A stretch of DNA of 63,826 nt, counting the filler, from Reclinomonas americana ATCC 50394 (Eukaryota): NCBI GenBank assembly GCA_048213135.1. It is 20 parts of 20 records of this genome, joined end to end, with 100 filler letters (N's around TTAATTAATTAA, not from the genome) between each part and the next. Parts side by side here need not be neighbours in the genome. Positions count along the whole stretch, not along the records: positions 17,207 to 20,672 come from AFZH01021446.1; 19 more parts are not named here. One strand, written 5' to 3'. A program made the position numbers and the translations under genes. Numbering within the stretch: the first letter of the stretch is position 1; the number at the start of each line of letters is the position of its first letter. Of the stretch, positions 1 through 61,460 are shown piece after piece. Under the pieces are notes generated by a model that did not search any database, was not told the origin of the DNA, and was given only the letters and a program-made list of their open reading frames with translations.

Positions 1-61
<61 letters not shown>

Positions 62-10746: not shown

Positions 10747-11042
10747 TATGGGGAGGGGAAGGGAGGGGGAAGGGAAGGGGAAGGGAGTGAGTGGGGGAGT
10801 GAGTAGGGGAGTGACTGAGTGAGGGAGTGAGGGTGAGGGAGTGAGAGTGGGGGAGTGAGTGGGGGAGTGAGTGGGGGAGTGAGTGGGGGAGTGAGTGGGG
10901 GAGTGAGTGGGGGAGTGNNNNNNNNNNNNNNNNNNNNNNNNNNNNNNNNNNNNNNNNNNNNTTAATTAATTAANNNNNNNNNNNNNNNNNNNNNNNNNNN
11001 NNNNNNNNNNNNNNNNNACACACACACACCTTTTCGTCATTC

Positions 11043-12146
11043 ATGTCCACTGCTTCTCGCCCTATCTTCCACCTCCAGCGTGTGCTGAAGGGACACACTC
11101 GTACGGTGATCTCTGTCGCCGTCACTCCCGATGGCCAGCGCGTTGTGAGTGGGAGTATCGATAATACTGTGCGCGTGTGGTCACTGGCGAGTGGCGAGGA
11201 GGTGCACCGAATGGAGGGGCACACTTGTACGGCGAACTCAGTCACCGTCACACCCTCCGATGGGCAGTTCGCTGTCAGCGGGAGTGTCGACAAAACAGTG
11301 AGAAAGTGGTCACTGGCGAGTGGGGAGGAAGTGCTGCGATTGGAGGGGCACACAGATGCGGTAAACTCAATCGTCGTCACTCCTGATGGTCAGCATGTGG
11401 TGAGCGGCAGTGACGACAAGACTTTGCGCTTGTGTTCCGTGGCTGGCAACAAAAGAGCGCGTCGGTTGAAGGGACATACTAGCTGCGTGCTGTGTGTCGC
11501 CGTCACTCCCGACGGGCAGCATGTTGTCAGCGGGAGTCAGGACGAGACACTACATGTGTGGTCACTGGCAACTGCACAAGAAGTACGACGGTTGGTGGGG
11601 CATACCGATTGTGTGCGCTCTGTGGCCGTCACTCCGGATGGTCAGCACATCGTTAGTGGGAGTTACGACAAGACCGTGCGTGTGTGGTCGCTGGTAAGCG
11701 GTAAAGAAGTGCGACGGCTCTAGGGACACGACCATGCGGTGAACTCAGTCGCGATCACTCCCGATGGTCAGTATATAGTCAGTGGGAGTGTGGATATGAC
11801 GGTGCGACTGTGGTCGCTGGCGAGTGGTGAAGAGGTGCAACGCTTGGAGGGACACACTGACTGGGTGCGGTCTGTCGCCGTCACTTCCGATGGTCAGCGC
11901 ATCGTCAGTGGCAGTTGGGACAGAACGATCCGAGTGTGGTCCACTCCATGCGGCCTCGCTCGGCAAGAGCTCTCCACAGCGCGCTCGGCAATGCTGGCAG
12001 TGCGTGAGATAATGCAGCCGCAGCAGCAGGAAGAGGAAGAACCGGACTCGCGATGCCTGCCTGAGATGGTGTTGCGCTGCTTCATTGTCGAGGAGGCGGC
12101 CGTCGTCATGCACCGATCCTTCGCCGACCCCGAGATGTATCTGTGA
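11043..12146 (+). pseudogene. Intronless WD40 gene, copy A, with in-frame TAG at 11721-11723
   Basis: About 7 GH...VTPDG...SGS.D.TVRVW repeats. TAG replaces the GAG (Glu) of the RLEGH motif, and the frame continues to the shared tail. Confidence 0.8.
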
Positions 12147-12472
12147 GGCACATGGTGCGGGAGGCTTGAGACGTTAACTTCTGAGAAGTATCCTCTTCCC
12201 TCCCTCTCTCCTATACTGTCTCCGGTTGCTAGAGTTGAATCGCAGAAAGTGTATTCTTCGTTGTTGCTTATACGAGTGAAGTTTTTCATGCAACATTTGG
12301 GATTAAGCTCTCCGTTCTCCCCTCACCATCACTGCCTCTTGTTCAACCACTCACTGCACACACAGACTGACAAGGGCGTGCTCCGGAAACGTCGGAAGAC
12401 GACGTCGCACGCAAATTTGTGTCATCCATTTTTTCTGCCTTCTACGCACACGCACACACTCTCTCTCAAGCC

Positions 12473-13597
12473 ATGTCCACTGCTTCTCGCCCTTTCTTCC
12501 ACCTCCAGCGTGTGCTGAAGGGACACAATGAGAGGGTTTTCTGTGTCGCCGTCACTCCCGATGGTCAGCATGTTGTCAGTGGGAGTGCTGATGGTACAGC
12601 TCGGGTATGGTCCTTGGCCAGTGGAGAACAAGTGCGTCTGCCGGGGGGACACACTGACTGGGTGTGCTCTGTCGCTGTCACACCCGATGGGCAGTTCGCT
12701 GTCAGCGGGAGTGTCGACAAGACTGTGATGTGGTCACTGGCGAGTGGCGACGAAGTGCTGCGATTGAAGGGACACACGCATGCGGTGAACTCGGTCGTCG
12801 TCACTCCTGATGGTCAATGCGTGGTGAGCGGCAGTGACGACAAGACTTTGCGCGTGTGCTCCATGGCTGGCAACAAGAAAGCGCGTCGGTTGAAGGGACA
12901 TACTAGCTGTGTGCTCTGTGTCGCCGTCACTCCCGATGGCCAGCATGTTGTCAGCGGGAGTGAGGACAAGACACTACGCGTGTGGTCATTGGCGAGTGGA
13001 AAACTTGTGCGACGGTTGGTGGGGCATACCGATTGTGTGCACTCTGTGGTCGTCACTCCCGATGGTCAGGAGCTGCATCCTGTCACATTCACCGTCGGGT
13101 CAAAACTAATTAGTGGGAGTTACGACAAGACCGTGCGAGTGTGGTCACTGGCGAGTGGGAAAGAAGTGCGACGGCTGGAGGACACAGATTGGGTGCTGGG
13201 TGTCGCCATCACTCCCAATGGTCAGTATATAGTCAGTGGGAGTGTGGATATGACGGTGCGACTGTGGTCTCTGGCGAGTGGCGAAGAGGTGCAACGCTTG
13301 GAGGGACACACTGACTGGGTGTGGTCTGTCGCCGTCACTCCCGATGGCCAGCACATCGTCAGCGGCAGTGATGACAAGACTATTCATGTGTGGTCCACTG
13401 CATGCGGTCTCTCTCAGCTGGAACTCTTCACTGCGCGCTCGGTAATGGAGGCAGTGCGTGAGATGATGCAGCCGCAGCAGGAAGACGAAGAGCCGGACTC
13501 GCGATGCCTGCCTGAGATGGTGCTATGATGCTTCATTGTTGAGGAGGCGGCCGTAGTGGTGCACCGATCCTTCGCCGACCCGGAGATGTATATGTGA
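12473..13597 (+). pseudogene. Intronless WD40 gene, copy B, with TGA at 13526-13528 inside the conserved tail
   Basis: EMVL*CFIVEE versus EMVLRCFIVEE in paralogs; small in-frame deletions; a foreign in-frame insert (ELHPVTFTVGSKL) near 13070-13108. Confidence 0.8.
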
Positions 13598-14027
13598 GGC
13601 ACATGGTGCGAGAGATGCGCTCTTCCCCTCTTCTCGTTCTCCTTCCTTCTTCGCCTGTTCGCTGCTAATTTGTGTCTCTCTTGAGCGAATGCAAGTACCG
13701 CAAAATTAATTGAGCGACACAAGCAGAGAAGCTTTCCACTCATCCCTTGCATGCATCCAGAGATACCTTTCCGTTCAGTCACATACCAATCAGGAAACGT
13801 GCACTCGGACGTCGACTTCGTGAGAGAAGAGGACATTCGTTCCTCAATCTCGCAGCACACGATCCTGCACCCAAGTGCACTGCCTCCAATCACGCACACA
13901 CTGCACATAATTTGCCCTCCATCTCTCAATCGCGCACGCACTGCACACATTTTGCCCCCAATCACGCGACCTCTCCGTCACGCACACATCCATCTCTCTC
14001 CCTTCCCCCTTTATTTCTCTCAAGCCC

Positions 14028-14758
14028 ATGTCCTCTCCTCCCCGCCCAATCCTCCTCTGCCACCGCGTGCTGGAGGGCTTCGCCATGACATCTGCTGCCT
14101 TCACCCCCGACGGTCAATTCGTCGTCACTGGGAGTTGGTACGGAACAGTGCGTGTGTGGTGCGTGGCGAGTGGAGAAGTGGTGCGACGGCTGGAGGCACA
14201 CTACTATCCGGTGAGCTCTGTCGCCGTCACTCCCGACGGGCAGTTCGCCATCAGCGGCTGTGCCGACAAGTTTGTTCGCGTGTGGTCGCTGGCGAGTGGG
14301 AAAGAGGTGCGACGGTTGGAGGGGCACACCGAAGCGGTGAAATCTTTCACCGTCACCCCCGACAGCCTGCACGTGGTGAGCGCGAGCGAGGACAAGACCG
14401 TCTGTGTGTACTCCATTGNNNNNNNNNNNNNNNNNNNNNNNNNNNNNNNNNNNNNNNNNNNNTTAATTAATTAANNNNNNNNNNNNNNNNNNNNNNNNNN
14501 NNNNNNNNNNNNNNNNNNAGTTCGAGTGGAGATGCCACAGTTCGAGTGTGGTCGACGCCGTGCGGTTTTGCGCAGCAGGAGCTTCTCGCGGCGCGGTCGG
14601 CAATGGAGGCAGTACGGGATATGATGCAGCAGCGACAGGAGGAAGAGGAAGAGCCGGACTCCCGATGCCTGCCAGAGATGGTGTTGCGCTGCTTCATTGT
14701 CGAGGAGGCGGCCGTGGTGGTGCATCGAATGCTGGCCGACCCCAAGATGCACCTGTGA
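14028..14758 (+). CDS. Intronless WD40 gene, copy C (interrupted by a gap)
   Basis: Same MSSPPRPILLC start, WD repeats and DSRCLPEMVLRCFIVEEA tail on either side of the gap at 14419-14518. Confidence 0.75.
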
Positions 14759-17241: not shown

Positions 17242-17457
17242 CAAGAAGAGAACTGAGTTGAGAATGCCAGCACGTCCCCTCTATGCTCACACTCGAACGC
17301 GTACCCCTAAAACCCACTCAGTGCTCACTGACCAGCATGTGCGTGCTTCGGAATGCTGGCGATACGTCGGTGTCGATGCAGGACAACACAATTAGTGCTC
17401 TCTCTCTCTGTATTGCATCTCACACTCTCCCACTCTCACACTCTCACTTTGCGATCC

Positions 17458-18543
17458 ATGTCCACTCCTTCTCGCCCTATCCTCCTCTGCCAGCACGTCT
17501 TGAAGGGACACGCCTGGGCGGTGATCTCTGTCGCCATCACTCCCGATGGGCAGCATGTGGTGAGTGGTAGCGCTGATGAAACAGTGCGCGTATGGTCACT
17601 GGCGAGTGGCAAGGAGGTGCAGCGAATGGATTCGCACACTGACGAGGTGAACTCAGTCGCCGTCACTCCCGATGGTCAGTTCGCTGTCAGCGGGAGTGAT
17701 GATGAAACAGTGAGGGTGTGGTCGATGGCGACAGGAGAAGAAGTGCAACGGTTGGAGGGACACACGAAAAAAGTTTACTGTGTTGCTGTCTCTCCAGACG
17801 GGCAACTCATCGTGAGCGCGAGTGACGATATGACTGTGCGAGTGTGGTCGCTGGCGAGTGAAAGGGAAGTGCGCCGGTTCGAGGGGCACATGTACTCAGT
17901 CACCGTCACTCCCGATGGCCAGTATGTAGTGGGCGGGGGTGGGGACAAGACAGTGCGAGTGTGGTCTCTGGCGAAAGGCGAGGAAGTGCGACGATTGGAG
18001 GGGCATACGGACTGGGTGGTGTCTGTCGCCGTCACTCCCGATGGCCAGCATGTTGTGAGTGGGAGTTATGACAACACAGTGCGTGTGTGGTCACTGGCAA
18101 GTGGAGAACAAGTGAGACGGCTGGAGCACACAGCTTGGGTGTCTTGTGTCGCCGTCACTCCCAATGGTCAGTTCGTTGTCAGTGGCAGTGAGGATAAGAC
18201 TGTGCGTGTGTGGTCTCTGGCGAGTGGCAAAGAGGTGCAAGGGTTGGAGGGTCACACTGAGGGCGTGGAGTGTGTCGCCGTCTCTCCTGACGGTCAGCAC
18301 ATTGTGAGCTCGAGTGGCCACAGTGACAAGACGATCCGCGTGTGGTCCACTCCATGCGGCCTCGCTCGGCAAGAGCTCCACACAGCGCGCTCGGCGATGC
18401 TGGCTGTTCAAGAGATGCAACAACAACTGGATGAAGTGCCGAACTCTCGATGCTTGCCAGAGATGGTGTTGCGTTGCTTCATTGTCGAGGAGGCCGAGGT
18501 CGTGGAGTATCGCATGCTCGTCGACCCCGGGATGCATCTGTGA
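17458..18543 (+). CDS. Intronless WD40 gene, copy D (intact)
   Basis: Uninterrupted ORF with about 7 WD repeats and the shared tail. Confidence 0.9.
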   Translation: MSTPSRPILLCQHVLKGHAWAVISVAITPDGQHVVSGSADETVRVWSLASGKEVQRMDSHTDEVNSVAVTPDGQFAVSGSDDETVRVWSMATGEEVQRLEGHTKKVYCVAVSPDGQLIVSASDDMTVRVWSLASEREVRRFEGHMYSVTVTPDGQYVVGGGGDKTVRVWSLAKGEEVRRLEGHTDWVVSVAVTPDGQHVVSGSYDNTVRVWSLASGEQVRRLEHTAWVSCVAVTPNGQFVVSGSEDKTVRVWSLASGKEVQGLEGHTEGVECVAVSPDGQHIVSSSGHSDKTIRVWSTPCGLARQELHTARSAMLAVQEMQQQLDEVPNSRCLPEMVLRCFIVEEAEVVEYRMLVDPGMHL

Positions 18544-18818
18544 GCCATTCGATTCAGCTGTGTTTCGTTCTTCATCTTCTTCCCCAGCGTCGACGTCTTC
18601 TGTGTTGTTGCCTGTTGTAATTCCTCTCTTCCGTACAGTAAACCAGGAAGTGCTCATACAAGCGCAAGCTCTCCCCATCTCCTTTCGCAATTACAGTATC
18701 TGCACCATCGCGCTGCACTCACTGAGCAGCAAGTTCGTGCCTTGGCAACGTCGGCAGGCAGACAGGACACCCAATTTCCCTCGCTCTCCTGCCCTCACAC
18801 TCTCTCTCTTTGTGACCC

Positions 18819-19898
18819 ATGTCCACTCCTTCTCGCCCTATCCTCCTCTGCCAGCACGTCTTGAAGGGACACGCCCGGGCGGTGACCTCTGTCGCCATCA
18901 CTCTCGATTGTCAACGCATCATCAGTGGTAGCACCGACAAAACAGTGCGTGTGTGGTCACTGGCGAGTGGCAAGGAGGTGCAGCGAATGGATTCGCACAC
19001 TGACGAGGTGAACTCAGTCGCCGTCACTCCCGATGGTCAGTTCGTTGTCAGCGGGAGTGATGATGAAACAGTGAGGGTGTGGTCCATGGCGACAGGAGAA
19101 GAAGTGCAACGGTTGGAGGGACACACGAAAAAAGTTCACTGTGTTGCTGTCTCTCCAGACGGGCAACTCATCGTGAGCGCGAGTGCCGACAAGACAGTAC
19201 GAATGTGGTCGCTGGCGAGTGGAAGAGAAGTACGACGGTTGGAGGGGCGCATGTTCTCAGTCGCCGTCACTCCCGATGGCCAGTATGTAGTGGGCGGGGG
19301 TGTAGACAAGACGGTGCGAGTGTGGTCTCTGGCGAGTGGCGAGGAGGTGCGAAGGCTGCAGGGTCATGCTGGCTGGGTGATGTCTGTCGCCATCACCGCC
19401 GACAGTCAGTTCATCGTTAGTGCGAGTTACGACAACACAGTGCGTGCATGGTCGCTGGCAAGTGGAGAACAAGTAAGTCAGCTGGAGCACACAGCTTGGG
19501 TGTCTTATGTCGCCGTCACTCCCAATGGGCAGTTCGTTGTCACTGGGAGCTTGGACAAGACCGTGCGCGTGTGGTCTCTGGCGAGTGGCAAAGAGGTGCA
19601 ACAGTTGGAGGGTCACACTGAGGGCGTGCAGTGTGTCGTCGTCTCTCCCGACGGTCAGCACATTGTGAGCTCGAGTGGCCACAGTGAGAAGCTTGAGACG
19701 ATCCGCGTGTGGTCCACTCCATGCGGCCTCGCTCGGCAAGAGCTCTTCGAAGCGCACTCGGCGACGCTGGTTGTTCAGGAGATGCAACAACAACTGGAGG
19801 AAGGGCCGAACTCTCGATGCCTGCCAGAGATGGTGCTGCGCTGTTTCATTGTCGAGGAGGCCGAAGTTGTGGTGCGTCGATCGTTTGCCGATCTGTGA
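18819..19898 (+). CDS. Intronless WD40 gene, copy E (recent duplicate of D)
   Basis: 359-aa ORF with long stretches near-identical to copy D; the tail is 4 aa shorter. Confidence 0.9.
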   Translation: MSTPSRPILLCQHVLKGHARAVTSVAITLDCQRIISGSTDKTVRVWSLASGKEVQRMDSHTDEVNSVAVTPDGQFVVSGSDDETVRVWSMATGEEVQRLEGHTKKVHCVAVSPDGQLIVSASADKTVRMWSLASGREVRRLEGRMFSVAVTPDGQYVVGGGVDKTVRVWSLASGEEVRRLQGHAGWVMSVAITADSQFIVSASYDNTVRAWSLASGEQVSQLEHTAWVSYVAVTPNGQFVVTGSLDKTVRVWSLASGKEVQQLEGHTEGVQCVVVSPDGQHIVSSSGHSEKLETIRVWSTPCGLARQELFEAHSATLVVQEMQQQLEEGPNSRCLPEMVLRCFIVEEAEVVVRRSFADL

Positions 19899-20182: not shown

Positions 20183-20626
20183 ATGGGTCGCAAGAAGCAC
20201 TACTGCGGTGAGTAAGCCCCTCCAACTTTGCATGAGCAGTGTGTGTGTCCGTGCGTGCGCTTTTGTGTGCCTCTTTGCGCGCGTTAGTTTGTCATGTCAT
20301 GTCGCCTTCTCACTCACTCACTCACTCACACGCGTGTGTGTGCTGCAACGTGCACAGAGTACTGCGACATTTTTCTCACACAGGTACTGTCTTGTGTAAT
20401 GCGCGCGCGTTTGTGTGTGTGTTTGTGAGCGATTGACTGACTTGTGTGCATCATCCAGTTCCGACTGGCCTCCCTGTCTCTCTCTGTGTGTGTCTATTGT
20501 GTGTGTGACTGACTGTGTGTTGTGTGTGTGAAACAGTGACTCGCCGGCTGCGCGGCGGCAGCACATGAAGGGATGGAAGCACAAGGGTAAGGATCAAGAG
20601 TGATGGGGCAAGTTTGTGAGAGTTGT

Positions 20627-20672
<46 letters not shown>

Positions 20673-21638
20673 NNNNNNNNNNNNNNNNNNNNNNNNNNNN
20701 NNNNNNNNNNNNNNNNTTAATTAATTAANNNNNNNNNNNNNNNNNNNNNNNNNNNNNNNNNNNNNNNNNNNNCCCTCTCCCTCTCCCTCTCCCTCTCCCT
20801 CTCCCTCTCCCTCTTCCCTCTCTTCCAATCTCCCTATCCCTCTCCTTCTCCCCCTCCTCCCTGTCCCTTTCCCTGCTTTCTCACCCTCCCCCTCTCCACA
20901 GTCAACGTGCGCGCCTACTACAGCCAGTTCCTGCCCGCGCAGGGAGCCCTGGCTGCGCGCGCGCTGCAAAACTTTGACGCGCAAGCTGGTGAGTCAAGAA
21001 TGTCCTTTTTCTGCTACTTCTTCTTCTTCTTCATCCCTCTCACCCACCTCTCGCTCTCTCGTGAACAGGTCGTGGAATGATGGGTGGTCCGCCCGGCGGC
21101 ATGCCTCCGCGCCCACCATACGGTGCATCCGTTGTCGTCTAGCTTCCCTCTTTTTTCTGTAATTCCCCTCCCCACTCACTCGTGATGGTGCACGCAGGCG
21201 GTCCCCCGCCACCGGGCATGGGGTACGGTTCATCCATGCCGCCGCCACCGCCACCGCCGTTGGGCAGCGGAATGGGCGCAGTGGGCATGGGCGGCCCTCC
21301 GGGATACCCGCGTCCGGGAATGCCCTACCCGCCGCCACCGCCGCCTGGAATGGTGCGTTGATCGTGAATGTTGTTGACATGTATCTGTTCTTCTCACATC
21401 TCGTCCAGGCTGGCATGCCGCCCATTCCACCTCGACCGCCGGGTGCGCCGTGGCCACCAATGGGCATGCCTATGCCACCATTCCCGCCCGGCGCAGGTGC
21501 TCCGCCGCCGCCGCCGCCTCCTCAGCAAATGCGCAGCGCGTCGAATAGCCACGGTGACGCACCGGGTGAGTAATGTGCTGGAATAGTTAGTGTTGTTGTT
21601 TTTTTGTTGCTCACGGTCCTGGTGCTGCAGGTCTGTAA
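20183..21638 (+). CDS. SNRPC: U1 snRNP protein C
   Basis: Spliced product [43 protein letters not shown] matches the U1-C zinc finger ([20 protein letters not shown]...KH...NV..YY), followed by a Pro/Gly/Met-rich tail. Requires the complex intron at 20383-20536. Confidence 0.92.
20383..20536 (+). other. Putative [D1,2] spliceosomal twin intron (stwintron) in U1-C
   Basis: Internal intron 20384-20458 (GTACTG...CTGAC...CCAG). Its removal joins G20383 to TTCCG, giving the donor GTTCCG of an external intron ending CTGAC...ACAG at 20536. The product CA|T GAC restores the conserved His-Asp. Confidence 0.8.
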
Positions 21639-21953: not shown

Positions 21954-24900
21954 TCACTGACGCGGTTTGGAGACCGGCAGCAGTATAGCAGCCGATTGCG
22001 CAGCGGAGGAGGCCATTGTGGAGATGCGATTGTCTGCTGCAGCTGTGTCCACCACCACCACCGCCGCGTCGTCGTTTTCGCCGGCTTCGTCCGAGGCAGT
22101 TGCCGGTCTCTTGGCGACGACCTTCTTGCGCAGAATCTTCTTCTTCACCAGCTGCGGACACATGAATGCAGTGTGAGAACGCAATCATGGAACAGAGCAG
22201 CAATAGCAGAAGTCTGCGAACCTTCTTCCTGGGACCGCCAGTGGAACTCGACGCAGCGCCTCCGGCAGCATCGTCGGCTGTCGCCGGCGCGTCGTACACT
22301 TCAGTGATGGTGTGTGTCGTCGTCGTCGTCGTCTCCGTGGTCTCGCCGTTAACAAAGGTCGAGTGGAGCGTCGTCTCTTCGTTGAGTACCACGGGCGGCG
22401 TGTCGAGGCCAGTGAGCGAACCGTCGGAGAGGAGGTGCGAGGCTGTGGAAGACACTGGAGACGAAGTGGAGTGCGGATCGTTGGACAAGGTCGGTACGCC
22501 GAGTCGAGCGTTGTAGTCGAAGGCGTCAGAGAATTGCATGCCGGTGCCACGAAGTGAACTGCCGCGGAGTGGGGTGCCCATCACTGGTTTGCCAAGGGAT
22601 GGCGAAGAAGGAGAGAGATGTAAAATGTTAGCCATTTGTGAAAGTCGCTGTGAAATGGAGCTTTCATTCTCTCTCTTTGACTCTCTTCCTCTCTTTTGAC
22701 TCATCTCGTGTCTTCTCCTACGCACACTCGCCCTCGCTCTCTATCTATCTCTTTTTGTCTTGGCTCCTCTCTACCTTTCTCTCCCTCTCCCTCTCTATCT
22801 CTCCCTTTCTCTCTCTCTATCTCTCTCGCATGACACAATCTCTTGTCACTGCCACACTGACGCACTGTCCTGCATTCACGAAATCTTCGTCTTCCCTCGC
22901 TCCTGTGCTCCGTCAACGTCTTCCCTTTCCCCCTCTCCCACCTCCCATCACCGTCTCTGGTCACCCGTCTTCTATCATTCCCTGTTCTCCTTCCAGTACA
23001 ATCTTCCACTTCCCTCTCCCTCTCCCTCTCCCATCTCCCGTCCTCTCTCCATTCTGGTTCACATCTTCTCTTCCCTCTCTCCTCTCTTCTCCCTCTCTCC
23101 GCTTCCTGTCCTCTCCCTCTCCCTCTCCCTCTCCCTCTNNNNNNNNNNNNNNNNNNNNNNNNNNNNNNNNNNNNNNNNNNNNTTAATTAATTAANNNNNN
23201 NNNNNNNNNNNNNNNNNNNNNNNNNNNNNNNNNNNNNNGCATGAGTCACAGACAATAGGGCGATGTGCTCACCTTGGCTCGCATGTTGCGCAGTGCACGA
23301 GCGCGCTGATCCTCCAACGAGGAGGATGCCGACGCCGCCGATTCCTCCACATTGACGGGCAGAGTCGGGCGCGCCACTGATAGTGGCAATGGATCGGGCG
23401 TCTCCAAATCTGCAGTCGGCGTGAACGGCGTCGACGCGGTGGAACTCACTGACAGATTCCCCGGGCTCCATCCATCGACCGGAGCAGCCACATGGGCGGC
23501 ATTCGCATGCGGCAAATCCTCTCCACGCGTGCTCTCCGAGACGGGCTCGACTATTGCCGTCGTCACTGTCGTCGTCGTCAGCGTGGTCGTGGTGGTAGTC
23601 GTCGTCGTGCTGCTACTGCTGCTGCTGCTGTTGGTCGCGGTGTCTGTGGATCGCGACGACACTGTTTGCACGGGGGCAGCGGATTCGACCGGCCGCACCA
23701 CTGCCCGCGGCTCGTGATGCGTGTCGTCGTCTGGTGTGGCAAATGAACGACTTTGTACAAGAGGCATCACCGTGGCGGCTGTTGCTGCTGATGGTGGAGA
23801 GGCGGCATGTCGACGGACGCTGCCCACTAATGGCGGCGGCTCGACGTGGTCGTGGGTGTTGTTGTGGTGATGACCGTTGGTCGTGTCACTCAGTGCAGTG
23901 GCAAGAGGCGACGATGCAGTCGACCAGGACATGGGCGACGCAGCACCACCCGTGTGGCTGCCGTCCTCACTTGTGGCTGTGGATTCGTCGCCAGCTGAGA
24001 GAGACAAAGGTGTGAGCGGGTGAACAATATCGACCACATCATCAAGGTCGCCAAGCAAGACTCACCAGAGGGTCGTCGCCGGGCCAACTGCTCCAGCTGT
24101 GCACCCGCAGCAGCGTGCGATGCGCGGATTTGCGTGGACCTCGGCGCGCCGCGCAGTACCACACCTCCGTACGGCGCCTCGTCCGTGTCATCGTCGACCA
24201 TTGGCCGTGCTTGCGCGCCTGGCGGCATCCGCACACGGCCCTCGGCAGCATAACCGCCAGCCAGCAGCATCGTACCGATGCGCTTCACCTCGGGATCCAC
24301 ATCGCGCGTCACCAGACGCCGCACAGCCTCTAGAACACCACTGTCCGCCACATCCATTCCGTAATACTCCTTGACTGCGAAACACACGATAAGAAAGAGA
24401 GAGGGAACGGGGACAAGGAGCATGAGACAGACGCAACTGTCTGGTTGCAGCACCGACATGAGCACCATCAGCACCGAGGTCATTGGTTGCATGGTGTCGG
24501 GCGCATTGTCCCACTCGTCGACGAACGAGCGTGAAATGTCGAGACCGTGAGACAAGACAAATTCCTCGCGGTGCGACACGTGCTCTGCGCACGCACACAC
24601 AATCAGCGCCAGAAAAACGAAAAGCAGCAAAAGAGAGGAAAGAAAAAAGTGGCAAAAGCATACAAGCACTGGGGCTTCCCAAGTGGTCCCCCACCCTAGT
24701 ACTGACCCAGCTGAACGCGGCTTAACTTCACAGATCGGACGGGATGTGGTGTTTTCCGCGTCATGTGGCCGTATGCGACCACTTAAGGGAAAGAGTGCAC
24801 GGGGGGATTGCAGGGAGAGGGCAACAGAAGAGAAATGGACGGAAAGAAGGCCAAGAGGGATGAATGCTGCTCACCCTGATGGAATGTGGAAGAGGTAAAT

Positions 24901-34010: not shown

Positions 34011-34215
34011 NNNNNNNNNNNNNNNNNNNNNNNNNNNNNNNNNNNNNNNNNNNNTTAATTAATTAANNNNNNNNNNNNNNNNNNNNNNNNNNNNNNNNNN
34101 NNNNNNNNNNGTGACTGCCAATATATCCGGCGCCTCCAGTGACCAGCACGGTTGGTCGCGCGGCGGTCGGAAGCGAGTCTACACTCGAGGCACTTGAGCG
34201 GCGATCGTCAAACAT
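33106..34215 (-). CDS. galE: UDP-glucose 4-epimerase (middle in a gap)
   Basis: VLVTGGAGYIGSH; FRFFNVAGA; FGEDYATRDGSCVRDYLHPMDVANAH; FNLGTGEG; RRPGD. Confidence 0.9.
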
Positions 34216-36438: not shown

Positions 36439-37333
36439 ATGCGAGCGACTGCACAGCGGGCGCACGACGAAATCATTCAGTGGCTGAATCGCAGTTTGGC
36501 GGCGTATCGCATGCAAGTGGGCTTGCTGGCCGAAGGTGCTTCTCTAATCCCTCCTCGTCTCCTGCTGACGCCGCGTGCACTCAACACCTCGCACAAATGT
36601 AGAGGGATCGGTGGGCCTGTCGCGTGAGTTGCGCGATGGTCGCGTGCTGTGTGGCCTAGTGCATCGCTTCTACTCGGACTCGGCGCTGCAGCTGTCGTCG
36701 GTGTTCACGCAGCCGCGCCTGCCGAAGCACTGCTTGCATAATCTACGCATGGCGGTCGATGCGTTGTCGTTTGTGCGCCATCCCATGTTCCTCACGGCCG
36801 ACGATTTTTACAATGTCAGCGAGGAGGTTGCGTGCTTTTGTTTGTCGTCGTGACGCCTACCATTGCCTCACTGTCGTCTCTTGTGTAGCACGCCGGCTTT
36901 GTGCTCGTGCAAATGCATGTGCTGCGCAACCGTTTGCGATACCTCGACAATTCATGGGACGACGGCGACGGTGAGCGCTACATTTTCGCAGGCCGACACA
37001 ATCGACTCCTCATTCTCACCGAGTGCAAGCAAGCACAGATTTGGGCGAGCGGCTACTGATGGCGGACTCGCCGGTGTTTTCCCGAACGCGCCAGACTGAA
37101 GCGGTTCCGTGTTGCCTCTGTCTTCCTTCGAGGTTTTCCGCCCGTCTGTTGGCTGATTTATCGCAATAGGTGACGCTGGCGGACGGACTGCGGCTGGATG
37201 TGGAGACGGCCGACCGCATCGCAGATGAGCTGTCACGCATGGCGGACGACGGCGAGATCATTGATGTGGACCCAGATCGCCAGCACTCGCCATTGCAGGT
37301 GCCGCCACAGCTGCAGGATGAGGCCGCGGAGCT

Positions 37334-39735: not shown

Positions 39736-41284
39736 TCTGCCGCTCAACTTGTGGAGACAGTTTCAGCGACCTGCCAAGTTGCTGTTCACACAACTCTCTC
39801 TCTCTCTCACACACACCCCCTCTCGCTCACTATGTGGCCTCTGTCTCTTGCGTGCAGCGTGTACTTCCTGCTCATTGCGATTCTGACATCGTTCCCGTCG
39901 GTTTCGCAAGTGGGTCCCGCGTCGTCCATTGCACCACTCGTGTTTGTGTTGGCGGTGACTGCGCTGAAGGATGGCATTGAGGACTGGGTGCGTCCACTCT
40001 CTTTCTCTCTCTCAAAAGGCGTGCGCACACACGCTGATATCTCGCTTTCCCCCCGCGCGCGCGCGTGTGTGTGTGAGCAGAAGCGACATCGTTTGGACAA
40101 GGCTGTGAACAATCGCGTGGTGGAGGTGTGGCGAGAGAAGCACTGGGAGCGCATTGTGTGGCAGGAGGTGTGTGTGGTGCACACAATCGTCTGCGCGGAG
40201 GAATGTGTGTCCAATCACACCCACTCACTCTCTTTTCTCTCTCGCTGTGCGTGTCAGTTGAAACTCGGTGATGTGGTTCGCATTCGACGCGACGAGAAGG
40301 TGCCGGCCGACGTGCTGGCGTTTGGCTCGTCGGATCGTGGTGGCATCTCGTATGTCGACACGGCCGATCTCGATGGCGAAACGAACTTGAAACGCAAGGA
40401 TTCCTTTGTGATGACCCGCACGCTGCAGCCGGACCAGCAGGCGAGCTTCCAGGGTGCGTTGATTCGATCTTTTCTCATTTTTTGTGTGTCTGTGCGCGCG
40501 TGGAGAGCAAGATGTCCCTGGTGATGTGTGCGAGAGGGAGAGAGATGGAGAGAAGCGGGGTGATGATTGTCATGTTTGCCGATTCTTTTGTTCGAGTTCG
40601 ATGGCGTTTGATCATGTTGACGGTGATTGTGACCTTGCGACGACATGCGCGCAGGCTTCATCAAGTGCGAGTTGCCGAATCGTGATCTGCGCAAGTTCGA
40701 CTCCGCCTTTTATCGCTCGTACCCGGCGACCCAAGTCGGCGAATCGATCTCCATCAACAATCTCTTGCTCCGAGTTTCGTCCCGAGCGGAAGAACTGTCC
40801 GCCACACGCGCTCTTTCTCTTCTCACTTATTTGCTGTCTCTTGTGATACCAGGAATGCGTGCTGCGCAACACGGAGTGGGTGATTGGCGTGGCGTGCTAC
40901 ACGGGCGCCGACTCGAAGATTGCCCGACAGAACGCCACTGGCAAGGTGCGCCACAAGCTCGGCAAGATCGACAGGGCGATGAACTTGCTCGTCGGCTCCG
41001 TCTTTGGCTACCTCCTGCTGTGTGTCATTATCTGCACGATTGCTGGCGCCGCGTGGGGAGTTGCGTCATTGTTTTTTCTATCCCTCTCGCTCTTGCCCGC
41101 GTTGCTAATGATCCGCGTGCAGTACCAAAACTCGAAGAACACCTTTNNNNNNNNNNNNNNNNNNNNNNNNNNNNNNNNNNNNNNNNNNNNTTAATTAATT
41201 AANNNNNNNNNNNNNNNNNNNNNNNNNNNNNNNNNNNNNNNNNNNNGCCCGTCGACTTCCTCCTCCCTCCCTCCCTCCCTCTCG

Positions 41285-41343
<59 letters not shown>

Positions 41344-42916
41344 TCCCTTCTCTTCCTCCTTCCCTCCTCTCTTCCCTTCCCTTCTCTTCCCTTCCCTTCT
41401 CTTCCCTTCCCTTCTCTTCCCTTCTCTTCCCTTCTCTTCTCTTCCCTTCCCTTCCCTTGCTCACCCCATTCTTGTCTGCGAGCGCAGAAGGGCTTCAATT
41501 TCCGCGACACCTCGCTGATGAACGGCAACTGGGTCCGCCTGCCGCACCCCGAAGTCATCGAGCACTACATGTACATGCTGGCGCTGTGCAACGATGTGCT
41601 GGTGGAGCGCGACCAGGAAAACCCCGATCCCAACGAGTACTCGTACAAGGCGTCGTCGCCTGATGAGCTGGCGTTGGTGATTGCCGGCAAGAAGTTTGGC
41701 TTCATTCTGCGAGTTTCGTTGCTCCCTCCCCTTCATTCTCTTTTGTTTCGTTCGCTGCTGCTCAATTTTCTCTCTGTTGTCTGTAGGCGGCCGACGATCA
41801 GACCAAGACGCTGGAGCGCCTGGACACGCGCGAGATGCAGACGTTCCAGTTGTTGCAGAGCTTCGAGTTCGACTCGGATCGCAAGCGACAGTCTGTCATT
41901 CTGCGCCACCCTCGCACCGGTGCCATTATTCTGTACGTCAAGGGCGCCGACTCCATTGTCATGTCGCGTTTGCACCCGACGTCGCCGTTTGTGGCCGAGA
42001 CACAAAGTCGCCTCGATGTTGCGTTCTCTTCACATCGTTTTATCGATGTGCACTGTTTTGACCTGCTTGTGCACACTCACAGCAATTCGCCAACGACGGT
42101 CTGCGTACGCTTGCCCTCGCCATGAAGGAAATCCCCGCGCCTGTGTACGAGGAGTGGTTCCAGCGGCTGCAGGTTGCCAAGTCCGCCACCGAAGGCCGTG
42201 ATGCCAAGGTTTGTCGATGTCGCGTGTGGCAGCTTGCGAGTCGTGCTCACACAGCGTCTTCACACTAGGTGGGCGCACTGGCCAACGAGATCGAACAAGG
42301 TCTCTTCCTGGTCGGTGCGACGGCCATTGAGGACAAGCTGCAAGAGGGCGTGCCCGACGCCATTGCCACCATGCAACGCGCCAACCTGCGCATCTGGATT
42401 CTCACGGGGTAATTCGACTCACTCTTGTCGTTATTGGTGTCGTGTGGAGTAATGCAGCTCAACCGTCACTTGTGCTCTCTCTCCCTTCTCCCACTCCCGC
42501 GCAGCGACAAGTGGGACACGGCCATCAACATTGGTCATGCCTGCTCGTTGCTGAATGATCAGATGAAGCAGCTGGAGATTCAGATGCCCAAGGAGACCAA
42601 TCACCCCCTGGTGCAGAAGACTCGTGGTGCAAGCAGGGCTGCCCGGGAGCACGAGGAACGCGTGTACGTGCACGAAATTATTAAGCGTGCAGCAATTCAC
42701 GCACGCGACTTGAGGAAGGTGAGCATCAAAATCTCTGTCCACTTATCTCTCACTCGTTGCTTTGCTTTCTCAACCAACTCTCATCTCGGGTGCAGATGAA
42801 CGAGCCGTACAGCGTCGTCATTGACGGCGAGTCGCTGACGTACGCACTGGCCACCTCGGAGCAGTTCCCTACGCGTGAACTTTTCCGTGAGGTGGGCATG
42901 GGCAGCAAGGCTGTGG
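39736..42916 (+). CDS. P4-type ATPase (phospholipid flippase), partial and gapped
   Basis: [85 protein letters not shown]. Confidence 0.95.
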
Positions 42917-43510: not shown

Positions 43511-44738
43511 TTACGGTCGCAAGCGACGCAGCTCGCCCTTCTCCGCATCAGCTGCCTCCTCAGCCGCGGAGTCCTGCAGCACCCAGCGCCACAGCGCACC
43601 GGCACCAATGGCACCGATCGCAGGTCCGAGCCAGTAAATCCACCAGCCGGTCCACGACACGGCGACGAGAGCCGGGCCAAAGGAGCGCGCGGGGTTCATG
43701 CTGGCGCCCGACACCCAGGCACCGGCAAACACATTGGCGGCGACCACAGCGCCGACACTCTGCACCGGAGAAGCAGCAGCGTTGAGAAGAGAGACAACTG
43801 CATGCGTGTGACAGTGCATTCCACCGCGCCAACGCAACGACAGGGACCAGCTTCTTGAAGGCGGGATTCTTGGTGACCAGGAGCACCGACAGCAGCAGCG
43901 TGAACGTGAGGAAGATCTCCGTCACCAGCGCGGTGCCTTGCGAGACCGCCGGCCCAGGAACCGTCGAGCCGCACTTCTCATCAAGAGCGCCCGGCAGCAC
44001 CAACAGCAGCACGCAGCCAATGATCGCTGCAGGACAGTGAGCGAGTGCCACTCGCTCATTCTCCACAAGCGGCCACTCACTCACCACCGAGGCACTCGGC
44101 AATAATGTAAAACACCGCACGCAGATACGAGTGCGGGAAGCGCCCGGCCACAATGTGCGCCAGCACGTTGGCGGGGTTGATGAATGCACCCGACACGTGC
44201 GCAAACGTAAACACAATGAAACCAACGGCCAAACCGTTGACGCCCGCCGCCGCAATCAGCCGGCCAATGGCATTCGCATCGCCTTGGCTGTCGGAATAAT
44301 TATCATCATCAGCATGCTCTCTGTTGCACACACACACTCTCTCTCGTTGTCTCACCGCAGTGACGGGTTGCCAGTCACTATTGAATGCGCATGTGAGTCA
44401 GTGCGTGTGTGAGAGAGAGAGAGAGAGTCGATAATGCACAGTGCGGCTCACCAATGGTCGTGTATCCAATGAGCGACAGCAAGCTGCATCAGCAAGGCGT
44501 CATCACACCACTCAGTTCGTTCTCTCTTTTACATAAGACGCAACAACATAGTTCCGAGGAACTCGCCCACCATCTGCCGCACAAACGCGCGCACACCACC
44601 CTCATCGCTATACAAAATGCGACTGAGTGCGCTCTTCCGCGTGCTCGTCGCACCGCCCGCGTGATTGACGCTGCTGACACCAGAGGCGGTCGTGGAGCTC
44701 GGCTCGTCGAGAGTGCTGTAGCCACCGCGGCCCGCCAT
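43511..44738 (-). CDS. Aquaporin (MIP family)
   Basis: [34 protein letters not shown] and WIYWLGP; five introns. Confidence 0.93.
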
Positions 44739-46440: not shown

Positions 46441-47382
46441 ATGTCGAGCGAAGCACCTCCTCTCTTCCTGTGCCAACACGTGCTGGAGGGTCACACTGGA
46501 GGAGTATGGGCGATCGCCCTCACTCCCGACGGGCAACACATTGTGAGCGGTGGCTTCGACGACACTGGTCGTGTGTGGTCACTGACGAGTGGAGAAGAGG
46601 TGTTACGGNNNNNNNNNNNNNNNNNNNNNNNNNNNNNNNNNNNNNNNNNNNNTTAATTAATTAANNNNNNNNNNNNNNNNNNNNNNNNNNNNNNNNNNNN
46701 NNNNNNNNTGCGACGACTGACGGGACACGCGCATGCGGTGACATGCGTTGCCGTCACTCCCGATGGTCAGCATGTGGTGAGTGGAGGCTTTGATAACATG
46801 GTGCGTGTGTGGTCACTGGCGAGTGGCGAGGCGGTGCGGCAGTTGGCCGGACATGATGCAGGAGTGTGTTCCGTCACTGCTACGCCCGACTGCCGGCACA
46901 TCGTGAGCGGTGGCCACGACAATGCCGTGCGTGTGTGGTCACTGGCGAGCGGAGAAGAAGTGCAACGGTTGGAGGGACACACAGAGGAGGTGTGCTCGGT
47001 GGCTGTCACTCACGATGGGCGACATATTGTGAGCGGGAGTGACGACAAAACAGTGCGAGTGTGGTCGCTGGCGACCGGAGAGGAATTGTGTCGGCTGGAG
47101 GGACACACCGACGCGGTGGGGACTCTCGCCGTGACACGCGATGGCCAGCACGTAGTGAGCGGGAGCCTTGACGCGACTGTGCGAGTGTGGAGCACCCCCG
47201 TCGGTCTCGCTCGTTGTGAGGTCGATGCAGCACGCGAGGCATTGCAGGTCGTCCAGGAGATGCAGCGAAAGAAGGATCCGGACTCACGATGTCTGCCAGA
47301 GATGGTGCTGCGGTGCTTCATTGTGGAGGAGGCTGGTGTTGTGATGTATCGATGCCTCACAGATCCCGAACTTTGTCTGTGA
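46441..47382 (+). CDS. Intronless WD40 gene, copy F (contains a gap)
   Basis: MSSEAPPLFLCQHVLEGH start, WD repeats and the shared tail. Confidence 0.8.
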
Positions 47383-47692
47383 GACTGGATGCAAGGAGAG
47401 TGAAGTCTATCCTCGTGCGCTTTGTCTTCTTCCTCATTTTCGCTGTCGCCGCTGCTGTTGCTGCAGCTCCAATGATCGTTGTCTTTCTATCTCTCTCGGC
47501 ATGCTGAAGTGAATGGATTCTGTTTCGGCACTCGACGACAGAGAAGGCATGCTGCAGCGTGCCTCTTGAGCTCTTGTCACTCTTTACGAACTACGAACTC
47601 TCCCAACCAGCCGAGTCCACCATGGCGCAGCAGCTTCGACGTCGATCCCGTATCGATGGGACCTCCACACTTCATTCCTCGATCCACCTTCA

Positions 47693-48787
47693 ATGGCAAG
47701 CGCTTCTCGCCCTCACTTCCTCCTCTGCCAGCACGTGCAAGAGGGACACACTGGAGGGGCTTTGTGTGCCACTGTCACTCGTGATGGCCAGCACATTGTG
47801 AGTGGAGGCGTCGACCGGACGATTCGTGTGTGGTCGCTCGCGAGTGGAGAAGAGGTGCTGTGCTTGAGGGGGCACTTTAATCTCGTGAATGCTGTCGCCG
47901 TGTCTCCGAATAACGAACACCTGGTGAGTGGGAGCACAGACAACACCGTGCGAGTGTGGTCGCTGGTCAGCGGAGGAGAATTGAGGCAGTTGAGGGGACA
48001 CACTGCGTTGGTGTGGACCGTTGCCGTCTCTCCTGATGGCCATCACGCTGCGAGTGGGAGCATTGACAGGACAGTACGTGTGTGGTCCCTGGTGACTGGT
48101 GAAGAAGTGATACGGTTGAAAGGGCACACTGGTGCAGTGCGTTCTGTCGCCTTCACTACCGACGGTCTGCGTGTTGTGAGTGGTGCTTATGACGGTACCG
48201 TGCGTGTGTGGTCGTTGGTGAGCGGCAATGCAGAGCAACTGCTACGAGGACACACTGGTGGGGTGCTGTGTGTCGCTGTCTCACCCGACGGTCAGCACCT
48301 TGCAAGTGGTGGCGGCTCTGGTGATCTGACAGTGCGCGTGTGGTCACTGGCGAGTGGAGCAGAGGTGCGGCAGTTTGCGGGACACTCTGCTGCGGTGTGG
48401 TCTGTTGCCTTCACCATCGACGGCCATTACGTCGTGAGTGGAAGTGATGACAAGACCGTGTGTGTGTGGTCTGTGGAGAGTGGCGCCGAAGTGCAGCGGC
48501 TGGAGGGACACACGTACCGTGTGCAATCTGTCTCCGTCACCCTCGACGGCCAGCACATTGTGAGTGCAGATAAGTCGGTACGAGTGTGGTGCACACCCGT
48601 CGGTCTTGCGCAACGTGAGCTTGAGAAGGCACGCGAGGCACTGCACGTTGTCCAGGAGATGCAACACGACAGCGGTGAAGAGGTGGACTCACGATGTCTG
48701 CCGGAGATGGTGCTGCGGTGCTTCATTGTTGAAGAGGCTGGGGTTGTGGTGTATCGATGCCTCACCGATCCCGAACTTTGTCTGTGA
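47693..48787 (+). CDS. Intronless WD40 gene, copy G (intact)
   Basis: 364-aa ORF with about 7 repeats and the shared tail. Confidence 0.9.
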   Translation: MASASRPHFLLCQHVQEGHTGGALCATVTRDGQHIVSGGVDRTIRVWSLASGEEVLCLRGHFNLVNAVAVSPNNEHLVSGSTDNTVRVWSLVSGGELRQLRGHTALVWTVAVSPDGHHAASGSIDRTVRVWSLVTGEEVIRLKGHTGAVRSVAFTTDGLRVVSGAYDGTVRVWSLVSGNAEQLLRGHTGGVLCVAVSPDGQHLASGGGSGDLTVRVWSLASGAEVRQFAGHSAAVWSVAFTIDGHYVVSGSDDKTVCVWSVESGAEVQRLEGHTYRVQSVSVTLDGQHIVSADKSVRVWCTPVGLAQRELEKAREALHVVQEMQHDSGEEVDSRCLPEMVLRCFIVEEAGVVVYRCLTDPELCL

Positions 48788-49069
48788 AGATGGTTTGCGG
48801 AGAGTGACGCCTGTGCTCGTTCTCGCCCTTTTTTCTTCCTCATTCTCGATGTCGACGCTGCTGTTGCTCCGCTTTGATCGTTGTCATATTACCTTTCTCG
48901 CTCTCGATCTCTTGCTCATTTCCTGTGAGCTGAAATGAATGCATTCTGTTTCGGAACTCGACGGCAGAGACGCCATGCTGCGCTGCGCTTCTTGAGCTCT
49001 ATCTTGCCAAGTCCATCACGGTTAGCTTCGAGACGTTGATCCCAGGACACTTTTCTCCCTTCTCCGCAA

Positions 49070-49893
49070 ATGTCGAGCCCTGCTCGCCCACTCTTCCTCT
49101 CCCGGCATGTGCTGGAGGGCCACACTGGAGGAGTGCTGTGTGTCACTGTCACTCCCGATGGTCTGCACGCGGTGAGTGGGAGCGTGGACAAGACCGTGCG
49201 GGTGTGGTCACTGGCGAGTGGGAAAGAAGTACGTCGGTTGGAGGGCAACAGAAGCATGGTGCAGCGTGTCACCGTCACTGCCGATGGCCACGACATTGCG
49301 AGTAGAGATGATGACAAGGTCGTGCGAGTGTGGTCTCTGGCAAGTGGAGAACAGAAACAGCAAGTGGACAAGCGCACTGGTGCAGCGCTATTCGCCGCCG
49401 TCACTCCCGACGGTCAGTTCACTGTGAGTGGGATGCATAATGGAACCGTGTGCGTGTGCTCCGTCGCAAGTGGAACTGAGGTGCGACGATGGAGGGCGCA
49501 CGCTCAGTACGTGCGATCTGTCGCCGTCACGCCCGACGGCCAGCACGTTGTCAGCGGGAGTGATGACCAGACGGTGTGCGTGTGGTCACTGGCGAGTGGC
49601 GAGGAGGTGCGACGACTGGAGGGGCACACTGGGTACGTGTTGTCGGTCGCCGTTGCCCCCGACGGGCAGCACGTCGTGAGTGCGAGTTGGGACATGACCG
49701 TGCGAGTGTGGTCGCTGGCCACAGGCCACGAGGTGCACCGACTAGAGGGACACACAGACCGGCTCTTTTCCGTGGCCATCACCCCCGACGGTCAGCACGT
49801 TGTCAGCGGCAGCTTCGACAAGACAGTGCGCGTCTGGTCCACGCCGTGCGGTCTTGCACGGTGTGAGCTCGACCACGCACGCGCAGCGTTGCA
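49070..49893 (+). CDS. Intronless WD40 gene, copy H (3' end in a gap)
   Basis: WD repeats followed by STPCGLARCELDHARAAL, the start of the shared tail. Confidence 0.85.
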
Positions 49894-59100: not shown

Positions 59101-61425
59101 AGGGGAGAGGGGAGAAGTGGAGACGCATACAAGTTAGATCCTTCGACATGTACAACTTCAAACACACTAACTCTCTCGCACTCTCATTCTCTCTCTCTCT
59201 CTCTCAGACACACACAAATTCTTCTCTCTCTCACACACACACACATTCATTCTCTCTCCACAGAATCACTCAACTGACATTCAAAAGCGTCGATGTCACT
59301 TGCACATATGCCCCCGTGCCGTTGAACCGATAGCTGCACGGTTGTCATCGCACACACATTAAATCTGTGACAAGCCGACTTTCTTCTCAGCAACACCAAT
59401 GCGGATAGCGAAAGACGAACCACACAGAGCACTGTCCCGCCGGCGTCAGATTCACATCACTCGTCGTCACCGTCAATGTCCATGCACCCGGTGATCCTCC
59501 GCGCGCTCCACTCGTCATGCTGTACGACGGCGATCCAGAGCAACCAGATCCAGACACAAGCTTCACATCGTCACTGGCCGTGAGACCATGGCCGGTCACC
59601 GTCACACTCTGTCCAGTCGTCTCACTCGTGATGCTCGCCGGCGTGAACGAGTCCGCAGACGGTACTACACACACACACACATGAACCAAAACAAACAACA
59701 ATATAATACCCAAATGAGTCGCAACCCTGCACCAGATCACACACACCCATGGACGCACACACGCACCGATAGCCAACACGCCAGGCACTTGCAGCCACAC
59801 CCCAGCTTGAGCACCTCCAAAGTGAATGCTGTGCGACACAAACAACACGCAACAATCAGTGCATGGAGAAAAAGGAGCGTACCTCATAGGGAACACTCTT
59901 CCTCTCTTCACCACTGTCCGTCATTCTCTCACTCACTCTTTCTACAACATGCAATGTTCTCACTTGACAGACAGCACGCTTCTTATTGCGCCTCCCCAAC
60001 TCGTGCTCCAAAAAAAACATGACACGCACCACACCCAGTACGATCCAACACCAAGCGACGTGCTCGTGGTTTGTCGAATCGTCGTCAGACCATCGACCGC
60101 CGTCGAAACAAGCGCCAGTACAGTGCCAGCACCCGTACACGCTCCCGCACTCTGCACTTGCACCACATCTGCATTCGACAGACCACTGCCACTCACAGTC
60201 ACTTGCACGCCACTCGTCTCCGCAATGATGCTGCTCGGTGAGAAGCTCGTCACTGCAATGACGCACCAATGTCAGCAACACAAGACACATACGATCGAAT
60301 ACTCATCACCGCGGAGACACACAGACCTGCGGCCACGAGCAACGAAGTACTGCCGACTTGCACAGGCGTGCCCACTCCACCGTACAAGTAACTGAACAAA
60401 AAACAAATCAAACACACANNNNNNNNNNNNNNNNNNNNNNNNNNNNNNNNNNNNNNNNNNNNTTAATTAATTAANNNNNNNNNNNNNNNNNNNNNNNNNN
60501 NNNNNNNNNNNNNNNNNNATGACGGCGACCCAGAGCACCCAGTTCCAGAAACAAGTTTCACGTCGTCACTGGCCGTGAGACCATGGCCAGTCACCGTCAC
60601 ACTCTGACCCGTCGTCTCACTCGTGATGCTCGCCGGTGTGTACGAGTCCGCAGACGGTACTGTACACACACAAACACACACACATAAACCAAAGCAAACA
60701 ACAACAATAATACTCAAAATGAGTCGCAACCCTGCACCAGATCACAGACACCCATGGAAGCACACACACGCACCGACAGCCAACACGCCAGGCACTTGCA
60801 ACCACACCCCAGCTTGAGCACCCCCAAAGTGAATGCTGTGCGACACAAACAACATGCAACAATCAGTGCATGGAGAAAAAGGAGCGTACCTCATAGGGAA
60901 CACTCTTCCTCTCTTCCCCACTGTCCGCTATTCTCTCACTCACTCTTTCTACAACATGCAATGTTCTCACTTGACAGACAGCACGCTTCTTACTGTCGCC
61001 TCCAAAAAGAAACTTGTGCTCACAAAAAAATATGACACGCACCACACCCAATACGATCCAACACCAAGCGACGTGCTCGTCGTTTGTCGAATCGTCGTCA
61101 GACCATCGACCGCCGTCGAAACAAGCGCCAGTACAGTACCAGCACCCGTACACGCTCCTGCACTCTGCACTTGCACCACATCCGCATCCGATAGACCGCT
61201 GCCACTCACAGTCACTTGCACGCCACTCGTCTCCGCAATGATGCTGCTCGGTGAGAAGCTCGTCACTGCAATGACGCACCAATGTCAGCAACACAGGACA
61301 CAGACGATCGAATACTCATCACCGCGGAGACACACAGACCTGCGGCCACGAGCAACGAAGTACTGCCGACTTGCACAGGCGTACCCACTCCACCGTACAA
61401 GTAGCTGAACATAAACAAAAGACAC

Positions 61426-61460
<35 letters not shown>

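Follow-up and report, generated by a model that had tools for sequence, protein, structure and literature searches.

The stretch of DNA analysed here, referred to as the window, comprises 63,826 nt of the Reclinomonas americana ATCC 50394 assembly (GCA_048213135.1) and carries an eight-exon gene (20183-21638, plus strand) that is assigned to the splicing factor U1-C (Table 1). Its conceptual product is 185 amino acids long. In this translation, C8, C11, H26 and H32 form an N-terminal zinc finger of the C-X2-C...H-X5-H type that includes LTHDSP, and exons 4 to 8 encode VNVRAYYSQF... followed by a Pro/Gly/Met-rich tail. The frame used for exon 2 is the sole one with the C-X2-C spacing of the zinc finger.

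Table 1. Coordinates of the features discussed, counted along the whole window
Feature	Position	Strand	Description
U1-C exon 1	20183..20207	+	ATG at 20183; MGRKKHYC plus the first base of the next codon
U1-C intron 1	20208..20357	+	150 nt, GTGAGT...CACAG, ordinary
U1-C exon 2	20358..20382	+	..E YCDIFLT plus CA of a His codon; ends ...CTC ACA CA
G1 of proposed external donor	20383	+	Also position -1 of the internal donor; base kept in the frameshifted product
Proposed internal intron	20384..20458	+	75 nt; donor CAG/GTACTG, branch motif ACTGAC 20436-41, acceptor CAG 20456-58
Rest of proposed external intron	20459..20536	+	79 nt with G20383; branch motif ACTGAC 20508-13, acceptor CAG 20534-36
Alternative in-frame donors for intron 2	GT 20389, 20413, 20419, 20425; GC 20401, 20407	+	All pair with AG 20536
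U1-C exon 3	20537..20586	+	Begins T GAC TCG CCG; T completes the His codon; ends with G
U1-C intron 3	20587..20901	+	GTAAGG...CACAG; crosses scaffold gap 20673-20772, apparent length only
U1-C exons 4-8	20902-20988, 21069-21122, 21198-21352, 21409-21565, 21631-21638 (including stop)	+	
U1-C introns 4-7	Between exons 4 to 8	+	GT-AG; 80, 75, 56 and 65 nt
CH-domain gene donors	37074-37169	+	GTGTTT 37074 and GTTCCG 37104, 30 nt apart, common acceptor, both stop-free
P4-ATPase gene	39737-42915	+	Over two contigs
Aquaporin (MIP) gene	44288-44452	-	Apparent micro-exon 44357-44378
WD40 ORFs	11019-14417, 17332-19898, 46711-49891	+	Pfam WD40
Tandemly repeated gene unit	56314-62396	-	Near-identical introns, e.g. 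58684-58821 and 61934-62085; 59829-60032 and 60836-61045
Single dispersed 5S rRNA gene	24657-24776	-	Rfam RF00001, 103 bits; among protein-coding genes

Exon 3 alone matches the Pfam family zf-U1 (PF06220) over profile positions 15/16-31 with E-values of 2.3e-4 and 3.8e-4; its score of 21.3 bits lies below the cut-off of 22, the query being a fragment of 22 residues. It also aligns with residues 15-32 of human U1-C, HDSPSVRKTHCSGRKHKE (PDB 2vrd, 4pjo and 3cw1; E 0.58 to 0.9). A His is therefore expected immediately before DSP. The gene is identified as U1-C from its translated sequence: from the exon 3 match, from the spacing of C8, C11, H26 and H32 and, in part, from comparison with the known sequences of U1-C proteins. 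A search for longer proteins returned no relatives of exon 7, and among the matches listed for a degenerate exon 2 pattern in metagenomes there was one unrelated contig lacking a U1-C context.

Several other features of the window were recorded. Its 19 gaps (e.g. 20673-20772 and 34011-34110) are identical 100-nt linkers consisting of N44, TTAATTAATTAA and N44. Genes run across these linkers, including U1-C within intron 3 and a P4-ATPase gene spread over two contigs, while residues about 17 to 148 of a GalE gene are missing in a gap. The best protein relatives of the GalE fragment are 43-47% identical and mostly bacterial or unassigned; the one relative obtained for the P4-ATPase fragment is 54-62% identical. 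A helicase fragment matched generic helicase clusters only. Eight long intron-poor ORFs are made up of WD40 repeats, with Pfam E-values as low as 1e-85, and together occupy about 7.4 kb of the window. The minus strand carries a tandemly repeated gene unit, for whose exons no Pfam families were found, and a lone 5S rRNA gene.

Six of the seven U1-C introns are GT-AG, with the donors GTGAGT (three times), GTAAGG, GTGCAT and GTGCGT. The remaining one, intron 2, runs GG...AG. Spliceosomes barely accept GG in place of GU at the beginning of an intron. The conserved LTH/DSP junction demands the removal of exactly 20383-20536 (154 nt; a slash marks the splice junction throughout), which joins CA to T, restores the His before DSP and leaves the frame open across five more exons. 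The downstream frame is open only when 20383-20536 has been removed upstream. In the assembly, bases 20383-20389 read GGTACTG, where a complete internal donor comes immediately after a leading G.

The interior of this intron contains two complete sets of splicing signals, as the earlier note on this locus had described; its coordinates, exon ends, GGTACTG start and two CTGAC/CAG sets were all recovered on the sequence. CTGAC occurs within 20383-20536 only at 20437 and 20509, and the sole internal YAG/T is the CAG at 20456-58, followed by TTCCGAC. The spacer between ACTGAC and CAG is 14 nt in the internal set and 20 nt in the external set, and the donor-to-branch spacers of the two halves are 46 and 44 nt. 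At 75 and 79 nt, both halves are close to the local median intron length of 73 nt and above the 42-nt U2 minimum. Excision of the internal half would rebuild the donor ACA/G+TTCCGAC, i.e. GTTCCG.

Such a layout corresponds to a stwintron of the [D1,2] type, a nested spliceosomal intron in which an internal intron disrupts the donor of an external one, and this is the interpretation of U1-C intron 2 that we consider probable, if by no wide measure, from the sequence. It would include three premises: a genuine GG in the DNA, splicing in two steps and a given order of these steps. Since introns here are short (median about 73 nt), pairing of splice sites probably takes place across the intron. 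The donor CAG/GTACTG (GT at 20384-85) would then pair first with the nearest 3' site, namely ACTGAC and the CAG at 20458. The first ligation would join G20383 to T20459 and so create a new donor, CA/GTTCCGAC. This donor would in turn be spliced to the second ACTGAC/CAG set at 20536, giving CA/T (His) and LTHDSP. The two-step route proposed in the earlier note is the only GT-AG path to LTHDSP, and at the level of sequence its signals, spacings and lengths all fit.

Whether a donor such as GTTCCG is credible depends on the donor repertoire of this genome. Introns were collected with a small self-trained gene finder that did not score splice sites, and were filtered on acceptor-side features and on the need to keep the frame. 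Out of 51 candidates, 40 were left after removal of the U1-C locus and of those introns that the frame does not demand; together with the six other U1-C introns they make a set of 46. Two versions of the gene finder were set aside: a first codon model, which yielded too few introns, and a version iterated with a position weight matrix (PWM), in which genes were over-split (214 introns, with many exons of 1-20 nt) or the model drifted. The median length of 45 inferred introns is 73 nt, with quartiles at 65 and 100 nt.

Homology support for unusual donors comes from an alignment of the P4-ATPase gene with P0095, the single relative found for it in the database. Spliced segments of the gene are 61.6% identical to this protein over 284 columns (E 3.7e-114) and 52.9% identical over 155 columns. 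All nine junctions are plain GT-AG, and the donors are GTTTCG (twice), GTTGCG, GTTGCT, GTTTGT, GTGCGT (twice), GTGTGT and GTAATT. GTT-class donors thus open five of nine homology-supported introns, and three of these five have the form GTTNCG. In the inferred set, GTTGCG is the commonest donor (6 of 46 introns, although it makes up only 65 of the 8288 GT hexamers of the window, or 0.78%), and GTTGCG(T), GTTTCG and GTGCGT are as frequent in the window as GTGAGT. Introns that begin with GTTGCGT resemble each other only in their first seven bases, which points to a shared donor consensus rather than to a family of mobile introns or introners. Judged from these sequences, GTT-class donors are real in this genome. 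GTTCCG itself differs by one base from GTTTCG and from GTTGCG, both of which have homology support. The papers returned by a literature search for GTTGCG/GUUGCG donors were all unrelated.

GTTCCG was also said to open an ordinary intron at 37104, in a gene with a CH domain. This is possible, but it is only one of two in-phase options, and the coding score of the segment between the two candidate donors is slightly below zero (-1.0 bits).

PWMs built on the intron set were used to score the candidate sites. The inner donor CAG/GTACTGTC reaches 4.25 bits (39th percentile of leave-one-out true donors) and the outer donor ACA/GTTCCGAC 2.81 bits (22nd percentile). The donor PWM separates poorly in this genome: ranked among all GT sites, the outer donor is only at the 47th percentile. 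Of the two acceptors, the inner one is weak at 3.38 bits, which places it at the 15th percentile of true acceptors and the 88th of all AG sites, while the outer one is strong (8.36 bits; 72nd percentile of true acceptors). This imbalance would favour the unproductive one-step route from the inner donor to the outer acceptor.

The main competing explanation is an error of assembly or sequencing. With one true G, intron 2 would be an ordinary 153-nt GT-AG intron (ACA/GTACTG...CAG/T) and its internal signals would be coincidental. Room for such an error is left by the draft state of the window, a scaffold in which 100-nt linkers join about 20 contigs of 2-6 kb, and by the position of the site, some 290 nt away from the end of a contig. 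The length of the intron is compatible with it as well. The earlier note had considered the intron to be about twice the length of the short introns here, which holds against the median of 73 nt; however, ordinary introns of 140-250 nt occur (8 of 45 are at least 140 nt), among them the 150-nt intron 1 of U1-C. Intron 1 is similar in length to the candidate twin and has no usable internal YAG/T. In addition, chance alone produces a nested-like site in 4-6% of shuffles. Against an extra G, about 10.5 kb of coding sequence supported by Pfam or homology in the window is free of frameshifts, and all nine P4-ATPase junctions are clean, indicating that indel errors are infrequent here. The error would have to strike one particular base, and to coincide with a branch motif, a suitable spacing, halves of median length and a GTTNCG donor typical of this genome, a combination found in 1 of 5000 shuffles. 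The single-G donor ACA/GTACTGTC also scores only 2.28 bits (13th percentile of leave-one-out true donors), whereas the second G turns ACA/GTA into CAG/GTA at 4.25 bits, a difference that was counted in favour of the nested intron. Overall, an erroneous G appears unlikely, though it is an alternative to be taken seriously.

The shuffles preserved the dinucleotides of the intron core, and a nested-like site was defined as a YAG/T with CTRAY 8-40 nt upstream and halves of at least 45 nt. Sites of this kind appeared in 294 of 5000 shuffles (5.9%), and in 200 of 5000 when the outer donor was required to reach a PWM score of at least 2.81. Only one shuffle in 5000 had a GTTNCG outer donor, a class that was picked after the data had been seen. 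Among 12 other inferred introns of at least 100 nt, one contains a nested-like site, with a donor score of 0.04.

A second alternative accepts both Gs and has no functional mRNA made in two steps: the gene could be a recently disabled allele or paralogue, or a single cut could be made at CA/GG, producing a true GG-AG intron. Apparent GG-AG introns are annotated elsewhere at low frequency. For instance, Table 1 of a Ganoderma lingzhi annotation lists 20 of them (0.0217% of introns; PMC11590231), whereas Drosophila release 6.04 has 0 (PMC4528330). The entries in these two sources resemble U1-C intron 2 in the apparent GG...AG borders; however, they are counts given without a mechanism, and the U1-C intron has a specific two-step canonical route. 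A true GG-AG intron would leave the internal site without explanation, and a disabled copy sits poorly with the state of the gene, in which the downstream exons, with the four sequenced introns among them, are all undamaged and in frame. We regard this alternative as improbable.

It is also conceivable, though very improbable, that both Gs are real and that intron 2 is removed in one splice from another canonical donor, or by way of a micro-exon, with Gln and extra residues taking the place of His17. Enumeration of all GT/GC...AG pairs that keep exons 2 and 3 in frame and stop-free returned four GT and two GC donors. Two of these, GTGAGC at 20425 (4.7 bits) and GTGTGT at 20413 (4.8 bits), outscore both donors of the proposed stwintron, and micro-exons appear to exist in this genome, as in the 22-nt exon of the MIP gene. 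However, all six donors would insert Gln and 2, 5, 7, 9, 11 or 14 residues between the Cys and His pairs, so that the His preceding DSP in human U1-C and the conserved spacing would both be lost. The micro-exon variant likewise starts from CAG and hence encodes Gln. Under either variant, the formation of a His codon from CA and T at the conserved place would be a coincidence, with a chance of roughly 1 in 32 judging by base composition.

The nested intron of the [D1,2] type can be compared most directly with the stwintrons of ascomycete fungi. In the literature searched, reports of stwintrons concern ascomycete fungi only, as far as titles and abstracts indicate, and protein searches with the present host gave no close relatives, fungal or other. 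The donor repertoire is unlike the fungal consensus, and a non-fungal host, as supposed in the earlier note, is plausible. The fungal [D1,2] search model, as described in PMC9024468, requires G at +5 and admits donors of the form GTNNGN, in 24 hexamers (model A). Several elements of this model are present at 20383-20536, namely the leading G, DYTRAY 4-20 nt before HAG/T, the external set and the spacers. The donor hexamers depart from it, with GTACTG and G+TTCCG both lacking G5. G at +5 is equally absent from four of nine P4-ATPase donors and from one of the six other U1-C donors, so the fungal donor rule does not transfer to this genome.

Model A with its 24 hexamers found 0 sites in the window, the U1-C intron included. 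When the donors were relaxed to GTNNNN, five start positions were found, one of which is 20383. Of the other four, one lies inside a WD40 coding ORF and one is the aquaporin micro-exon; none appears to need a nested model. This apparent 22-nt exon of the MIP gene, read by eye, lies between canonical introns (GTGAGC... and GTGAGA...) and, while matching the relaxed [D1,2] motif, resolves canonically. The first intron of the MIP gene also starts GTTGCGTC. A separate screen of the window for further [D1,2] cases, in which coding flanks of 20 codons were required, returned no case that begins with G and one that begins with T; this screen is blind to the U1-C case itself, whose exon 2 is only 25 nt long.

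Stwintrons described from Pezizomycotina (Hypoxylon sp. CO27-5, Xylariaceae; PMC12403724) share with the U1-C candidate a 5' G placed ahead of a full donor, a rebuilt G/T donor, two branch/acceptor sets, spacers within the published ranges and short constituent introns. According to the same source, they also share a frameshifted product, predicted for U1-C, that retains one G when distal sites are used. The U1-C candidate differs from them in that its donors lack G at +5, in the unusual donor repertoire of its host (GTTGCG, GTTTCG), and in that it has neither a terminal inverted repeat nor a stable fold. No masking or bridging RNA structure was found in 20358-20560 (fold z = +1.3; 183 of 200 shuffles were at least as stable). 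It also has no sister copies in the window. An origin of the two halves by tandem duplication was considered and rejected, as their likeness is no better than that to other TG-rich introns. Their global alignment score of 15 was reached by 1 of 500 mononucleotide shuffles, and their local score is 21.5 against 21.0 with intron 1, with nothing convincing beyond shared TG repeats.

Stepwise removal of introns is also seen in recursive splicing. Ratchet points, or zero-length exons, occur in long introns of Drosophila and vertebrates and carry AG/GT. They are comparable to the U1-C candidate in that removal is stepwise and a 5' splice site is regenerated after the first ligation. However, a ratchet point has the whole GT downstream of the internal acceptor, whereas the U1-C site reads AG/TT and takes its G from the last retained upstream base. 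The internal site, CAG/TTCCGA, deviates from the ratchet-point motif YAG/GTRAGT. Moreover, ratchet points serve very long introns, and U1-C intron 2 is 154 nt long.

A nested intron at this position could fail in two ways. If the inner donor were spliced directly to the outer acceptor, one G would be kept and the junction would read CAG TGA, a stop that the earlier note had predicted for a direct splice of 20384-20536 and that translation bears out. If the second step failed, a stop would follow after 19 codons. Both routes would be unproductive by-products, as distinct from a demonstrated control device. The poison outcome put forward in the earlier note is not peculiar to this locus. For [D1,2] stwintrons of the Xylariales in general, use of the distal sites has been shown experimentally to be an alternative missplice that keeps one intronic G and shifts the frame, as reported in PMC12403724. 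Particular to U1-C is that the retained G gives an immediate TGA.

The earlier note had further suggested that U1-C regulates itself through this intron. In its full form, this would be a non-fungal [D1,2] intron, with donors lacking +5 G, in the gene for a protein with a stabilising effect on U1 at weak 5' splice sites, where the balance between two-step and one-step splicing would set U1-C dosage through mRNA decay. We consider this highly improbable. Both routes begin at the same donor, so the choice between them is a choice of 3' site. The step most plausibly in need of U1-C would be the weak rebuilt donor, and low U1-C would thus lower productive mRNA further; the logic of the proposal would point to positive and not to homeostatic feedback. 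A partial parallel exists in the cross-regulation of U1C and U1-70K by alternative splicing, described in PMC3798272. The two are alike in that the level of a U1 snRNP protein is tied to an unproductive splice choice. In the account given there, however, the circuit has experimental proof, operates in human cells and targets U1-70K by way of a cassette or an alternative splice choice, whereas self-regulation of U1-C is conjecture. A regulatory role would be of interest if true, and is at present unsupported.

For genome annotation, the locus serves as a warning, as an essential splicing factor would come out truncated or distorted from any gene finder that allows GT-AG introns only. If real, U1-C intron 2 would plausibly represent a known type of intron in a new host lineage, with atypical donors. 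Should the GG and the splicing intermediate prove true, nested spliceosomal introns would extend beyond the ascomycetes, and the nested layout would work with a very different donor repertoire. This would also bear on the origin of such introns and on one-nucleotide intron shifts.
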